Virus genome (UHGV): UHGV-0209617 | DNA: 64,000 bases | From: a virus | Reading direction: 5' to 3' (one strand) | In this document: positions 3,721 through 8,690 of the stretch, one piece after another | Layout of the letters: each line of letters begins with the position of its first letter | Position numbering within the stretch: position 1 is the stretch's first letter | Position numbers and translations under genes: made by a program | Notes under the pieces: model-generated | Databases searched by the model: none | What the model saw: only the letters and a program-made list of their open reading frames with translations | Told to the model about the DNA's origin: nothing

Positions 3721-3960
3721 TATTGGGTGCCTTATTTTTTTGCAGGAGATTTGGGATTTATGTAGAATAATTAAGATAGGATAGTAGATACATAGGTAAA
3801 TAAAACTAAGGCTATAGGTATGGGAGGAAATGAGAATATGTATAAAAGAATATTCATAATGATTATCGTGTTGCAGGCACTTTTTATAGGGGTATGCTCT
3901 GCCAATTCGGGCAGATTAGCAGACATTGGAGCAGAAGTATTTAAAGAAAGAATAGCTGCA
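3721..3960 (+). repeat. Conserved 5' module (upstream region plus signal-peptide coding) of secreted paralog family, copy 1
   Basis: Near-identical to 7331-7560; related to 4421-4640 and 8100-8230 (shared ..ggtatgggagg.. and RLADIGAE coding segment). Confidence 0.7.
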
Positions 3961-4383
3961 GTCTCATCTTGTCGAGTGACGGAATTTGTCATTAGTACCC
4001 CAACAGGTGTTATAGCAAATTCGCGTCCAGAAACAACGGAGTATGAGTTCCGCATTTTCAATACCTCAGACAATATGGTACTTTTTGATGTATATGTGAA
4101 TCAAGAAGGGTATATTGACAGTATAGTAATAAGTGGCCCATTCGCTAATCAAACAAATCGTAAATTTTTATCCGATCTTGTAGTTAAATCAATGCTTGTT
4201 ATTGGCTTGAGTTATGATGAGATGAGGTGGTTAGTTAACAATGGTAGTAATCAAAGTAGGCTATACGAAGGTAGGGTATATTCTGAAAAATTACTTAGGG
4301 ATGTTTATTACTCTTTATGCATAGAATCAAACGGTTTTTGTATAAATACCATAGACAAAGTGTCGTTTAAAGATAGGTTGTAA
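3838..4383 (+). CDS. Secreted small protein, paralog family member 1
   Basis: 181 aa from ATG 3838 (GGGAGGAAA upstream); signal peptide MYKRIFIMIIVLQALFIGVCSA; shared motifs RLADIGAEVFKERI, VNQEGYIDSI, GRxVYY. Confidence 0.6.
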   Translation: MYKRIFIMIIVLQALFIGVCSANSGRLADIGAEVFKERIAAVSSCRVTEFVISTPTGVIANSRPETTEYEFRIFNTSDNMVLFDVYVNQEGYIDSIVISGPFANQTNRKFLSDLVVKSMLVIGLSYDEMRWLVNNGSNQSRLYEGRVYSEKLLRDVYYSLCIESNGFCINTIDKVSFKDRL

Positions 4384-4498
4384 TAAGGAGAGATGTTTTT
4401 AAGATAATAAGCTAGTAGGATGTGTAGAATACTATAAAATAGGTTAACGGATACATCGGTAAATAAAATTAAGGTTATATGTATGGTGGCCAGATGAT

Positions 4499-4811
4499 AT
4501 GATAAAAAGAGTATTTTTTACGTTTATCGTGCTGCAGATATTTTTATAGGTCCGTGCTATGCAAGTTCAGACAGATTAGCAGATATTGGAGCGGAGTTAT
4601 TTAAAGAAAGAATTGTAGAAGATATACCTTTCAAGGTTGCAGATTTCAAAATAACAAATGAAGCGACCGTTGCTAGAGAACAGCCACATATGGCTGGTGA
4701 CTCTAAATACGAATTTATGGCAGTGCAGAATCAAAATGTAATGCTTATGATTGATGTTTATGTGAACCGAGAAGGTTACATAGATAGTATTATTAACTGT
4801 GGGGAAAATAT
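4499..4811 (+). pseudogene. Secreted paralog family member, frameshifted and 3'-truncated
   Basis: 5' end near-identical to 8118-8690 (MIKR.FFTFIVLQIF) but one T is missing in the T-run near 4540, giving TAG at 4547-4549; homology to the intact paralog stops near 4800 where the 4812 gene begins. Confidence 0.55.
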
Positions 4812-6422
4812 ATGGATGAGAAGAATTTTATCAGATATGGGGAGAAAGCTATAGAATACCTACATATGGGAGATGAACAAGGTTTTTTTGAGGCCTTGGG
4901 GGTTATTAAACATGTTGGAAATAAAGACTACGCTAATATGCTAACATCACTCTATTTTTATAAGAAAAAGCAGTTTAGAAAATGTATGGACTGTTTAGAA
5001 AAAATAGCAGAATGCAAAAACGATAATTTGAAGGAGATGTTAACGGTATGGTATTGGGATTTTAAAATATGTTGTTTGGCAGAGCAAAAAAAGTTTTCTG
5101 AAATATCGAGTATTTTTTGTGAAGATAAAGGACTGTTTAGCGAAGATGATGAGATCATAATGCAATATTCAAGCTACGTATATGCTAGATATCTTGCAAT
5201 AAAAAGTGGATTTCAAAAAGATAAAAACACTGTATATTATCCTGGAATTTTGGGTAAGAATGTTATTCGTACAGAAGATCAGTTTATGTCTGTTATTTAC
5301 AGAGAATTAGGTCGAGATTTACTAGATATACATTTAAATTATCATGCTCTTTTACAATTGAAGAAGGCAAATGTTGAAAAGAACATTTGTAGGGAAATGA
5401 AGGAAAAATTGTTAGTCAAGGTACAATATATCTGTGATTTAGGTGACCAGAAATATTATGCATTAACACCGCAAGTTGTTAAATACATGGAGTATATTAC
5501 AAATATCATTACCAATGAAAAAAATTTAAATGAGGATAAACTTAATGATTTGATTATTTCTTTATTTTCAGACGAAATTTTAATCCAAGATATAGACAAT
5601 TGGTTATTTATGGTTGATTTATTTTCTGTAACGGCAGATAATGAAAAATTTATTAATTTCTTTAGATGTTATGATCAATTTATACTTAAATGTCTAAGTA
5701 GAGATAATGAGATCGTAGCAAAAAAATTAATATGGATGTGTAATGACGAGAGATTTTCCTCATTAAAATATGAACATACAACCTTTAAAGATTATTGGGA
5801 ACATAAGATTGAGCTGTATATGCCTGGGTTTATTGCAAATAGTAGAGTTTATTCATGTGATAAATATATTCTTGATAATTTATCAGAAAAGAGTAAATGG
5901 GCATATGAAGCAGCAATATGGCAGTATGAAAATGTTATGGAATATGGCAGTGAATATATGGATGCTGGTTTGTTGAGTCTAGCGTTTATGAGAGTGCTAG
6001 AAACAGAATTGAATGCTAGAGTAATAGCGCCTTTATCAAAAGCTATAAGTGAAGATACAAAGGGAAAAGCTTTACTAGACAAATTATTAGTTGGGGCTAA
6101 TAGTTACCATTATAAGTTTTTGAAAAAAACGAATAAGGGAGCTACATTAGGTCAAATCGGGCATTTTCTTGAGGGAATTCGGAAAAAAAGTATCGCAGAA
6201 TATTCCTGTTTTTATAATATTTTATGTAATAGCTTATTGAGTATTTCTGGAAAAGAGGCCATAGATGCAGGGATATTCGAAGAAATGACTAGCCAAAAAC
6301 TAATTGATAAGTATAGAAATCCACCTGCACATTCTAAATATCTTCAAAAGTCAGAAGCAGTAAAGGGAAAACTATTTGTAGAAGATAGTTTGAGAAAACT
6401 ATTTACATATATTAACCGATAA
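4812..6422 (+). CDS. Hypothetical cytoplasmic protein, 536 aa, no recognisable domain
   Basis: Long uninterrupted ORF, no signal peptide, AT-rich codon usage; begins exactly where the paralog pseudogene homology ends. Confidence 0.55.
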   Translation: MDEKNFIRYGEKAIEYLHMGDEQGFFEALGVIKHVGNKDYANMLTSLYFYKKKQFRKCMDCLEKIAECKNDNLKEMLTVWYWDFKICCLAEQKKFSEISSIFCEDKGLFSEDDEIIMQYSSYVYARYLAIKSGFQKDKNTVYYPGILGKNVIRTEDQFMSVIYRELGRDLLDIHLNYHALLQLKKANVEKNICREMKEKLLVKVQYICDLGDQKYYALTPQVVKYMEYITNIITNEKNLNEDKLNDLIISLFSDEILIQDIDNWLFMVDLFSVTADNEKFINFFRCYDQFILKCLSRDNEIVAKKLIWMCNDERFSSLKYEHTTFKDYWEHKIELYMPGFIANSRVYSCDKYILDNLSEKSKWAYEAAIWQYENVMEYGSEYMDAGLLSLAFMRVLETELNARVIAPLSKAISEDTKGKALLDKLLVGANSYHYKFLKKTNKGATLGQIGHFLEGIRKKSIAEYSCFYNILCNSLLSISGKEAIDAGIFEEMTSQKLIDKYRNPPAHSKYLQKSEAVKGKLFVEDSLRKLFTYINR

Positions 6423-6576
6423 TGTATTTTTGTTATTCATATCAAAAATAAGAAAACATAGATAATATTTACAGAATATATAGTTTATTAAATGAACTAT
6501 ATAATACGACGCAATTAAAATATGTACTGGGTTGATTAACAATTTTATTTCAAAGTGATGATAGGAGTGTTTAAAG

Positions 6577-7254: not shown

Positions 7255-7330
7255 ATTATTTATTTCATATATGGCCTATAGGTTAGAATTAAGGTCTAAC
7301 TTTTTGAGGTTGGTACAACATAGGGGGAAA

Positions 7331-7560
7331 TCTTTGCTGTCTTATTTTTTGTGCATGAAATTAGGAATTTATGTGGAATACTATAAAATATGTCAATAGA
7401 TACATCAGTAAATAAGACTAAGGTTATAAGTATGGGAGGGGACCATAATATGCTTAAAAGAATATTCATAATGATTATCGTGTTGCAGGCATTTTTTATA
7501 GGGGTATGCTCTGCCAATTCGGGCAGATTAGCAGATATTGGAGCAGAAGTATTTAGAGGA
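7331..7560 (+). repeat. Conserved 5' module of secreted paralog family, copy 3
   Basis: Aligns with 3721-3960; coding 5' ends almost identical at nucleotide level. Confidence 0.7.
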
Positions 7561-8016
7561 AAAATGGTGGAGAGTACGAATTCTTTTGTGAGTGGATTAG
7601 AAATTAAAAAGCTATCAGGAGGAATGGCAAAGCTATATCCAGGAACAACATTATATACATTTTTTATGTTTGATAATTTGAATACAGATAAAGTTGTCAG
7701 TGTTTCGGTATTTGTAAATCAAGAAGGTTATATTGATGCTATAGGCGTAGCTGGCTCAGGAGCAAGTGAAAGCAGTAGAGCGTTTTCGACAAATATTGTG
7801 GAAGAGTCTATGAGGGCTATTGGTTTAAGTAATGATGACATTAACTGCTTGACAACTAAAGGTATACAAGGGAAAAAATATCAAGGGGTAGTTTTTTCTG
7901 AAAATATGGGTAGAGACGTTTATTATACATTTTGGATGGGACCTAATGCTGTCCATTCAAGTATTATAGATAGAATGTCTTATACGAATAGGGGTAATTT
8001 GTTTAGAGCAAGTTAG
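7450..8016 (+). CDS. Secreted small protein, paralog family member 3
   Basis: 188 aa from ATG 7450 (GGGAGGGGA upstream); signal peptide MLKRIFIMIIVLQAFFIGVCSA; motifs RLADIGAEVF, VNQEGYIDAI, GRDVYY. Confidence 0.6.
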   Translation: MLKRIFIMIIVLQAFFIGVCSANSGRLADIGAEVFRGKMVESTNSFVSGLEIKKLSGGMAKLYPGTTLYTFFMFDNLNTDKVVSVSVFVNQEGYIDAIGVAGSGASESSRAFSTNIVEESMRAIGLSNDDINCLTTKGIQGKKYQGVVFSENMGRDVYYTFWMGPNAVHSSIIDRMSYTNRGNLFRAS

Positions 8017-8117
8017 TAAAATATACACAAAATGTATGTCACGGCTATGTATAGCTTAAGGGAGATAGGTATAAAGAAATAAATTTTTGAGTATATTTAT
8101 GTAAAGGGGAAGATGAT

Positions 8118-8690
8118 ATGATAAAAAGAATATTTTTTACGTTTATCGTGCTGCAGATATTTTTTATAGGGCCATGCTATGCAAGTTCAGACAGATTAGC
8201 AGATATTGGAGCGGAGTTATTTAAAGAAAGAATTGTAGAAGATATACCTTTTGAGGTTACAGATTTCAAAATAGCAAATGAAGCGTCCGTTGCTAGAGAA
8301 CAGCCACATATGGCTTGTGACTCTAAATACGAATTTATGGCAGTGCAGAATCAAAATGTAATGCTTATGATTGATGTTTATGTAAACCGAGAAGGTTACA
8401 TAGATAGTATTATTATATGTGGGCCATCCGTCGAAAAAAGAAATAGCAAGTTTTTAACACTCGTATTAGCAGAGTCTATGAAGGCTATAGGATTAAATAT
8501 GGATGAGATAATGTGGTTATGTTCTAAAGGTTCAATATCAGGAAATACATATGAGGGGAGTGTTTTTTCTACAGGAATGGGAAGAACTGTCTATTATAGT
8601 ATGAGTTTAACATCGGATGGCTTTGGTATTAATAGAATCGATAGAATGTCTTTAACAGATAGGTTTACAAGATCAATGTTAGCTAACTAA
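8118..8690 (+). CDS. Secreted small protein, paralog family member 4
   Basis: 190 aa; signal peptide MIKRIFFTFIVLQIFFIGPCYA; motifs RLADIGAELFKERI, VNREGYIDSI, GRTVYY. Confidence 0.6.
   Translation: MIKRIFFTFIVLQIFFIGPCYASSDRLADIGAELFKERIVEDIPFEVTDFKIANEASVAREQPHMACDSKYEFMAVQNQNVMLMIDVYVNREGYIDSIIICGPSVEKRNSKFLTLVLAESMKAIGLNMDEIMWLCSKGSISGNTYEGSVFSTGMGRTVYYSMSLTSDGFGINRIDRMSLTDRFTRSMLAN

Follow-up and report, generated by a model that had tools for sequence, protein, structure and literature searches.

Positions 3721 to 8690 of a 64,000-nucleotide (nt) stretch of the virus genome UHGV-0209617 (the whole stretch is called the window here) hold a genuine tandem array of four related genes, A, B, C, and D, of a hitherto undescribed family of small exported proteins. 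The best explanation for the locus is that it would be an array of prophage accessory ("moron") genes that ordinary recombination has reshaped; the anatomy, the evolutionary account, and the classification as morons, taken jointly, were assigned a probability of about 0.6. The genes are more alike at their 5' ends than in their bodies, and this split has two layers, a family-wide constraint on the protein and a recent exchange tract between A and C. The history of the array is one of birth and death of copies together with phage mosaicism, and not of a programmed switch.

The four copies and their 5' modules

The genes were identified on the plus strand from the open reading frame (ORF) listing and by direct reading, at the four positions given in an initial annotation of the sequence. 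A tblastn search of the 64 kb with family members returned exactly four places (E values of 1e-17 to 1e-129) and no further copy or fragment. Below, A to D denote the window copies, L numbers denote related loci on other contigs, and P numbers denote clustered proteins; lengths are in amino acids (aa).

3838..4383, plus strand: copy A, 181 aa, intact, body type IV (its own type)
4499..4803, plus strand: copy B, pseudogene, duplicate of D (type III), cut off after about codon 101
7450..8016, plus strand: copy C, 188 aa, type I, intact in the window
8118..8690, plus strand: copy D, 190 aa, type III

The A, C, and D proteins are 42 to 49% identical to each other and have in common a signal peptide (MxKRIF..LQ..FIG.C.A) and the motifs RLADIGAE, VNxEGYID, AIGL/DEI, and VYY. 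As first described, the bodies have diverged (55 to 59% nt identity) except for short anchors, which are VNxEGYID, AIGL, DEI, and VYY. The A protein is identical to P0011, and locus L013, from another sample, is 99.3% identical. B has lost 1 nt (T6→T5), giving a stop at codon 17 (4547-4549). Alleles of C elsewhere are frameshifted (L056) or altered at conserved residues (L012). Genes of the D type occupy the last position in every array and are intact at all loci seen.

The degree of conservation at the 5' end depends on the pair compared. A and C are identical at 88 of 90 nt (3843-3932) and, with the leader included, at 88% of 182 nt (3772-3953 versus 7384-7565); B and D are 96 to 98% identical (4492-4803 versus 8111-8423). 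Across the two pairs (A/C versus B/D), identity of the 5' module is 78 to 81%. The upstream region is common to A and C and is shared by B from the −10 region onward, while the sequence upstream of D is unrelated to that of the other copies (∼60 to 62% identity). The initial annotation had described an upstream region and a 5' module that were near-identical in all four copies; the near-identity thus holds within each pair but not between pairs, and the shared upstream region holds for A, C, and part of the B leader but not for D.

A maximum chi-square scan with two breakpoints (200 permutations per pair) found a 5' segment that was significantly more alike than the rest in every pair. For A-C, 185/210 sites matched in the segment (3733-3942) and 257/435 in the rest (0/200 permutations); for A-D, the counts were 88/108 and 274/491 (0/200 permutations), and for C-D, 94/117 and 283/502 (1/200 permutations). 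Divergence is therefore not uniform along the genes, in agreement with the proposed division into a constant and a variable part.

The proportions of nonsynonymous (pN) and synonymous (pS) differences were obtained from Nei-Gojobori counts, with the module taken as the first 35 codons. In all pairs but A-C, including orthologous types in other prophages, pN was 0.11 to 0.18 in the module versus 0.25 to 0.45 in the bodies, and module pS was an ordinary 0.32 to 0.65. Low pN with ordinary pS indicates constraint at the protein level. For A-C alone, module pS was 0.04 (versus 0.62 in the bodies), which indicates recent exchange of DNA. In the four-copy array of the intact prophage L057, the 5' modules are just 76 to 88% identical, so near-identity arose locally and does not characterize the family. 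The 5'/body split is thus composed of two layers, the family-wide protein constraint and the recent A-C exchange tract. Two constrained protein elements, the signal peptide and the N-terminal helix of the predicted fold (x-L-x-D-I-G-A-E), would keep the 5' end constant.

Recombination between copies and turnover of the array

The initial suggestion that the 5' module undergoes recombination or gene conversion was supported by the A-C pS value, by A/C polymorphisms shuffled among alleles, by a hybrid copy (B), and by a chimeric locus (L011). Two features of the window carry the trace of these events:

3843..3942, plus strand: exchanged (gene-conversion) tract shared with C (7455-7554), covering the signal peptide and RLADIGAEVF codons and delimited by the 88/90 identity, pS, and the chi-square scan
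4423..4498, plus strand: A/C-type −10 region and leader before B (repeat family D4)

At the few module positions where A and C differ, alleles from other samples show a reassortment of bases, with the C-type base in L013-A and the A-type base in L012-C and L056-C. Upstream of B, positions 4423-4486 are 86% identical to 7372-7435 and 69% identical to 3760-3823 (D4). The −35 region and the terminator are gone from the B leader, and its ribosome-binding site (RBS) is weakened to GGTGG. B is a hybrid of an A/C-type leader and a D-type coding sequence. An 18-nt stretch over the RBS and start of B (TGGCCAGATGATATGATA, 4487-4504; GGGGAAGATGATATGATA in D) also has a 17/18 match within the gene for a 225-aa protein (6904-6921), which could be due to chance or to a small template-switching patch.

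L011 is a 1,194-nt metagenomic scaffold from another sample that is 99.5% identical to window positions 6823-7565. It joins the 225-aa gene, the C upstream region, and the C 5' module to the body and downstream sequence of A, and the switch from C to A sits within a 43-nt stretch that is identical in both copies. The A part is the window sequence save for a 33-nt in-frame deletion. Such a junction would match the product of unequal crossing over or of exchange between elements. These observations point to the conserved 5' stretch as a homology patch at which bodies swap between copies and between phages; recombination at the terminator repeats that flank the array probably also shuffles bodies.

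The end of B was originally read as truncation by an insertion. The homology of B to D does end where reported, near 4800 (∼4797-4803, i.e., 9 to 15 nt before the ATG of a 536-aa gene at 4812). The following feature lies at that point:

4790..4811, plus strand: point where B meets sequence 5' of the 536-aa gene, at imperfect microhomology ATAGTAnnATTA..TGTG

The 3' remainder of B was found nowhere in the 64-kb window by tblastn. When the window junction was aligned with both D and the intact L056 flank, the join fell at about −20 of the 536-aa gene. In L056, this gene has an intact and different 216-nt 5' flank and stands behind another secreted-protein gene; in L012 and L063, it is 5' truncated, with just its last 91 codons left. 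L013 and P0005, each from another sample, carry the same B pseudogene and junction. An element inserted into B and splitting it was rejected, since the window lacks a 3' half of B and the L056 flank is intact and different. From its sequence, the end of B is better read as a deletion or junction mediated by the microhomology.

The order of events that we propose is as follows. A recent gene conversion or crossover tract would have homogenized the 5' modules of A and C. B would have arisen from a duplication of D, with an A/C-type leader fused to the new copy, and would later have suffered a frameshift and a microhomology join to sequence 5' of the unrelated 536-aa gene. An 88-aa gene, found ahead of the array in intact prophages, would have been deleted.

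Selection on the copies was estimated from the ratio of nonsynonymous to synonymous substitution rates (dN/dS). Between paralog types the ratio was 0.36 to 0.66; among alleles it was 0.88 for C, 0.81 for A, 0.98 for the 225-aa gene, and 0.32 for D. No comparison of types or alleles gave a value above 1. Conserved residues are substituted in L013's A (Y92D) and L012's C (D174Y), and the following copies are disrupted:

B: frameshift and truncation
L056-C: 1-nt deletion (G3→G2)
L001/L002, type II: 1-nt deletion at codon 2 (T2→T1)
L003-L008, type II: 261-nt in-frame deletion
L011-A: 33-nt deletion

Copies other than D have thus been pseudogenized repeatedly. This is birth-and-death evolution under relaxed constraint, and not diversifying selection on a switching antigen.

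Prophage setting, protein family, and neighboring genes

Related loci showed the position that the array takes in intact phages. In L001 and L003, a pair of family genes lies between an endolysin gene (Amidase_3) with the 88-aa gene and a sigma-like/Xis/Tn916-type integrase module. In L057, the same slot, from amidase/88-aa gene to Xis/Int, holds four full-length paralogs. Intact Anaerovibrio prophages thus carry 2 to 4 paralogs per array, before Xis, Int, and the right attachment site (attR). Chromosomal genes directly follow the prophage in L003 and L057; those of L057 are Anaerovibrio chromosomal genes, and those of L003 match Anaerovibrio lipolyticus An883 at 99% identity. The G+C content of the array is 33% versus 42% in phage late genes, Xis/Int, and the chromosome (L057 and L001), and in the window it is 33% versus 46% in the adjacent prophage. 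The array therefore has the hallmarks of a moron, namely, a prophage slot between conserved modules, variable presence, its own terminator, and deviant base composition. Its presence varies in that related prophages carry 2 versus 4 copies and a sister prophage has AbiE in the slot.

The sister prophage is intact, occupies ∼20 to 64 kb of the window, and matches part of L001 at 100% identity over 6 kb. Its slot, from the lysis genes to helix-turn-helix/Xis/Int genes, contains an AbiEii toxin gene with an upstream partner ORF (60271-61721; Pfam E value of 3e-37). The array itself, as judged from the TerL and portal fragments near it and from the reduction of the 88-aa gene to 10 codons, forms the right arm of a decayed prophage, from which Xis and Int are absent.

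Further remains lie on both sides of the array. Two separate C-terminal fragments of TerL and an N-terminal portal fragment (1-324, 1069-1260, and 1778-2269) have 77 to 79% DNA identity to the intact counterparts in the related prophage copy of L001 and are remains of a second, related prophage. To the right, a 100-nt stretch (10187-10286) is 95 to 97% identical both to the prophage/chromosome junction of L003 (7946-8044) and to an inter-prophage junction in L001 (13324-13419). This stretch, probably the remnant of an attachment site, would mark where the dead prophage ended on the right; the window contains no tRNA gene. A P-loop nucleoside triphosphatase ORF (AAA_21/ABC_tran-like N terminus; 9257-9830) is broken into at least two frames (9257-9460 and 9567-9830) and is probably another pseudogene of the dead prophage arm. 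Between the dead and intact prophages lies a defense island, a four-gene restriction-modification cluster at 12700-18378 (N6_Mtase/Eco57I/TaqI_C, MethyltransfD12, McrB-like AAA_5, and RE_LlaJI), preceded by a small PhdYeFM-like ORF and a Sel1+DUF6273 protein gene (10560-11441).

The protein family is very rare. Word-indexed searches of 5.8 billion clustered proteins returned 12 clusters in total (5 with D and 7 with C, the window's own A, B, and D products among the 12), all unannotated. A, C, and D matched no Pfam, PHROG, PADLOC, or NCBIfam model; a profile search of the PDB with the family returned nothing, and no viral or PDB fold match was below an E value of 1e-3. The family is thus new to Pfam, PHROGs, NCBIfam, PADLOC, and the PDB. 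A profile search of 1.84 billion representatives found 56 proteins at an E value of ≤1e-3, of 167 to 207 aa save for some fragments and one 2,212-aa protein. Those distant members that were read have in common the signal peptide, x[LI]x[DN][IVM]GAE, [DE]GY[IV], and [AI]LG[LI]..E; a Pfam search of 41 of them gave no family and only scattered chance matches. Named members are from Megasphaera massiliensis, Selenomonas ruminis, and "Caudoviricetes sp.", so the known range is the Negativicutes and their phages, across which identity within the family falls to ∼20%. All sources are gut or rumen metagenomes.

The distant member P0014 belongs to another phage type (L058), where a 173-aa paralog (hhalign probability of 88%) adjoins it; divergent tandem copies therefore recur. 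The L058 tandem (7450-8546) consists of two very divergent members of 173 and 181 aa, in a phage with Terminase_3, ArdA, RadC, and Amidoligase_2 genes. It adjoins a NikA-like gene, a SocA_Panacea toxin-antitoxin gene, and Bro-N/ANT antirepressor genes.

An AlphaFold2 model built from 11 sequences (pLDDT [predicted local distance difference test] of 82.8; pTM [predicted template modeling score] of 0.77) consists of a signal helix, a helix at residues 24 to 42 that contains RLADIGAE, and two modules of a helix and four strands. In this alpha+beta fold, a helix packs on a four-stranded antiparallel sheet, twice over. The conserved anchors are core elements of the model, and the variable stretches are residues 39 to 80 and 104 to 118 and the C-terminal sheet. 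A cleavable Sec signal peptide is predicted, leaving a mature protein of ∼165 aa. Near the cleavage site, a Cys is followed by x-Ala, with Ala at −1, and distant members have Ala or Val in place of the Cys; this pattern fits the −3 position of a signal peptidase I (SPase I) site and not a lipobox.

The features around the four copies are as follows:

3682..3711, plus strand: what is left (∼10 codons from the start) of the 88-aa gene that intact prophages carry ahead of the array
3704..3741, plus strand: decayed terminator hairpin and T-run (−11.5 kcal/mol; z score of −1.4; weak)
3739..3768, plus strand: promoter-like TTTGCA-18-TAGAAT upstream of A, a consensus match
4812..6422, plus strand: orphan 536-aa gene, product predicted to be cytoplasmic, not a family member
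6577..7254, plus strand: gene for the 225-aa signal-peptide protein, from a different orphan family
7323..7350, plus strand: right half of a terminator hairpin and T-run, upstream of C (direct repeat D7)
8755..8795, plus strand: strong terminator-like hairpin closing the array (−28.2 kcal/mol; z score of −7.1; 0/200 shuffles as stable)

Window positions 3638-3711 are 97% identical to L001 8875-8948, and the rest of the 88-aa gene was lost in a ∼255-nt deletion between GGCAGC microhomologies. The intact L001 counterpart of the 3704-3741 hairpin has a stability of −21.9 kcal/mol (z score of −6.2). The hairpin region forms direct repeat D7 with 7323-7350, which would be a half-site left by recombination. 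The hairpin at 8755-8795 is also present on both sides of the L001 gene pair, and a terminator of ∼45 nt (AATGGCAATAAGGCAGCAGGGAAAA..CCTTGCTGCCTTATTTTT) is a direct repeat there (L001 9186-9232 and 10645-10698; window 8752-8800). Such flanking repeats could mediate the gain, loss, or duplication of cassettes. The −10 part of the promoter-like site of A is kept before B, before C, and before the first array gene in L001 and L057. No Rfam match with an E value of <0.01 that might mark a cis-regulatory RNA in the conserved leader was found in positions 1 to 12000.

The 536-aa protein has 2 homologs among the 5.8 billion proteins and no significant Pfam, PHROG, NCBIfam, or PDB match, with a sub-threshold PADLOC match to PDC-M32B (E value of 0.004). 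Its C-terminal KYRNPPAHS motif (Rx4H, HEPN-like) is kept in a 39%-identical homolog. It may be a candidate defense or abortive infection (Abi)-type gene. The 225-aa gene accompanies C-D in L012, L056, and L063. Unrelated orphan signal-peptide proteins (225, ∼166, ∼200, and 208 aa) are grouped with the array both in the window (6577-7254 and, on the minus strand, 2601-3275) and in related loci (L056 422-1024 and L057 11096-11722); none matched Pfam, PHROG, or NCBIfam. The array slot seems to collect exported proteins.

Alternative explanations and known systems

The account favored here, prophage accessory genes reshaped by ordinary recombination, faces several contrary observations. Periplasmic export is deduced from the presumed host and from signal peptides and cleavage sites that were read by eye. 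Promoter-like matches numbered 32 versus 31 expected from shuffled sequence, which is not significant in such AT-rich DNA. The allelic dN/dS values of A and C near 1, the changes at conserved residues, and the many pseudogenes would equally fit the decay of nonessential genes. Finally, L011 is a 1.2-kb metagenomic scaffold and is possibly an assembly chimera, yet the longest exact A/C repeat at its junction is 43 nt.

As to function, the host is a diderm, so that the proteins would reach the periplasm or envelope at least; they would presumably be expressed from the prophage in the lysogen. The position of the slot (with a defense gene in the sister prophage), export, rapid divergence, and copy turnover favor a lysogen-protective role at the envelope, such as superinfection exclusion (Sie) or receptor masking, which we offer tentatively. 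If the proteins do exclude other phages, their divergence and turnover would be the product of an arms race with related phages. Searches with PHROG, PADLOC, Pfam, and NCBIfam models gave no match to any described Sie family. A more elaborate proposal, which we consider unlikely, is that the genes form a modular exclusion or receptor-masking repertoire of periplasmic binders specific to phages of the Negativicutes, with types I to IV each blocking a different competing phage or envelope target. If so, the leader/signal-peptide/N-terminal-helix block and the terminator repeats would be handles by which specificities are traded and stacked, and the recurrence of divergent tandem arrays, even in unrelated phage types, would be accounted for.

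It is somewhat doubtful that the proteins are lysogenic-conversion effectors directed at the animal host or at competitors (in colonization, adhesion, immune modulation, or periplasmic inhibition and immunity). The slot and the signal peptide do match the placement of streptococcal and staphylococcal prophage exotoxins, the sources are gut and rumen samples, other orphan signal-peptide proteins share the island, and the model, with its two alpha+beta4 units, weakly resembles PepSY/YpeB and other extracellular binder folds. However, the family has no homology to a toxin, adhesin, or inhibitor family, an SPase I signal alone reaches only the periplasm in a diderm, and the corresponding slot of the sister prophage carries a defense gene. 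The architecture of polymorphic toxins (Rhs; CDI [contact-dependent inhibition]) was not found: a single globular fold of ∼165 aa is predicted, with conserved motifs along its whole length, no small immunity ORF paired with each copy, and no toxin domain match.

Alternatively, the array could be functionless debris of a dead prophage, its 5'/body contrast being due to duplication, drift, and occasional conversion. The fragmented phage genes around it, the dead copy B, the many disrupted relatives, the allelic dN/dS of ∼0.8 to 1.0 for A, C, and the 225-aa gene, and the substituted conserved residues would all be expected of debris. Even so, A, C, and D keep their ORFs, RBSs, and signal peptides, D is intact everywhere with a dN/dS of 0.32, intact prophages carry full arrays, and the family has been kept across Negativicutes phages down to ∼20% identity. 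We consider it unlikely that debris accounts for the locus.

Under programmed antigenic or phase variation, the constant module would be an expression-site handle for variant bodies, which gene conversion would move in or which would be switched on and off; the initial annotation had drawn an analogy with antigenic-variation and polymorphic-effector systems. Recombination at the module is real, and two copies have been turned off by 1-nt indels in short runs (B, T6→T5; L056-C, G3→G2). The analogy did not hold up in other respects, with no silent cassettes, invertase, or contingency tracts, with dN/dS of ≤1, and with frequent pseudogenes. Leader, RBS, and start codon are present in each of the copies, and the 64 kb contain the four copies only and no promoterless silent cassette. 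Peptide patterns found no more cassettes in GTDB genomes or IMG/VR, nor did a DNA pattern in IMG/VR; the module DNA pattern found one true further locus and one chance match in JGI metagenomes, and INPHARED phages had no DNA match to the module. The indel sites are short and differ from case to case, the L001 T2→T1 change is fixed in its lineage, and the L057 four-copy array lacks a homogenized module. Programmed variation is therefore very improbable.

Specific switching mechanisms were considered separately. An invertible promoter or shufflon was rejected, as no promoter-flanking inverted repeats and no recombinase or invertase were found in the array. The array contains no tandem repeats or long homopolymer tracts. 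Slipped-strand phase variation was rejected since the L001/L002 frameshift is a fixed T2→T1 change and the runs are just 2 to 6 nt; no length-variable tract was found in the start regions of 8 related loci. A diversity-generating retroelement was rejected because positions 3300-9100 hold no separate template repeat, although the window ORFs were not systematically screened for reverse transcriptase. The repeats in 3300-9100 that reach into bodies are paralog matches only, i.e., the B/D duplication (D2) and short anchors (D6 and D14).

A role as lysis accessory proteins (spanin-like or lysis regulators) is hardly credible: the array adjoins Amidase_3 in L001, L003, and L057 and a diderm host does need outer-membrane disruption, but the predicted fold is globular alpha+beta with no coiled coil, lipobox, or C-terminal anchor, copy number is variable with many pseudogenes, a terminator separates the array from the lysis genes, and the family members in L058 are remote from all lysis genes.

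While the protein family is new, the evolution of prophage accessory genes by mosaic recombination is already well known. Phages of the Negativicutes, the diderm Firmicutes of gut and rumen, are barely characterized, and arrays that recur in a lysogenic-conversion slot provide a concrete candidate for a phage-phage or phage-host factor that acts at the envelope. The locus is also a clean, small-scale case of a signal-peptide block serving as a recombination patch in phage mosaicism.

Morons and lysogenic conversion at the lysis-attR end are a concept from lambdoid phages and HK97, with prophage exotoxins of Streptococcus pyogenes and the phiSa3 immune-evasion cluster of Staphylococcus aureus as examples. 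Like morons, the array lies between lysis and integration modules, is AT rich (33% versus 42% G+C) and bounded by terminators, has a promoter-like leader, varies among related prophages, and encodes products with signal peptides. It differs in that its family is unrelated to described moron products, in that 2 to 4 divergent paralogs occur together, and in that its expression in the lysogen is presumed.

Envelope exclusion proteins include Ltp (Streptococcus thermophilus phage TP-J34), Sie2009 (lactococcal P335 phages), Llp (T5), and Cor (phi80/N15). Like these, the array proteins are small, exported, fast evolving, and borne by temperate phages outside the core modules, and an Abi gene occupies the sister slot. 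Ltp, Llp, and Cor are lipoproteins, whereas the array family has an SPase I-type site with Cys at −3; no similarity to the exclusion proteins in sequence or fold was detected.

Multigene surface families provide a further comparison, e.g., vlp of Mycoplasma hyorhinis, vsp of M. bovis, the erp/mlp upstream homology box of Borrelia, and the lpl and ssl clusters of S. aureus. Unlike the vlp/vsp-type families, the array has no lipobox, phase-variable homopolymer, invertible element, or internal repeats; it is phage borne, with 2 to 4 copies, and its bodies keep core motifs throughout, with no freely varying region. Like these families, it consists of tandem paralogs in which the 5' block is more conserved and recombination within that block yields mosaic genes. 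The pilE/pilS system of Neisseria and the vlsE/vls system of Borrelia pair an expression site with a silent archive, whereas the array consists of complete genes with no sign of high-frequency switching; what it shares with both is an exchange of variable segments directed by short conserved stretches.

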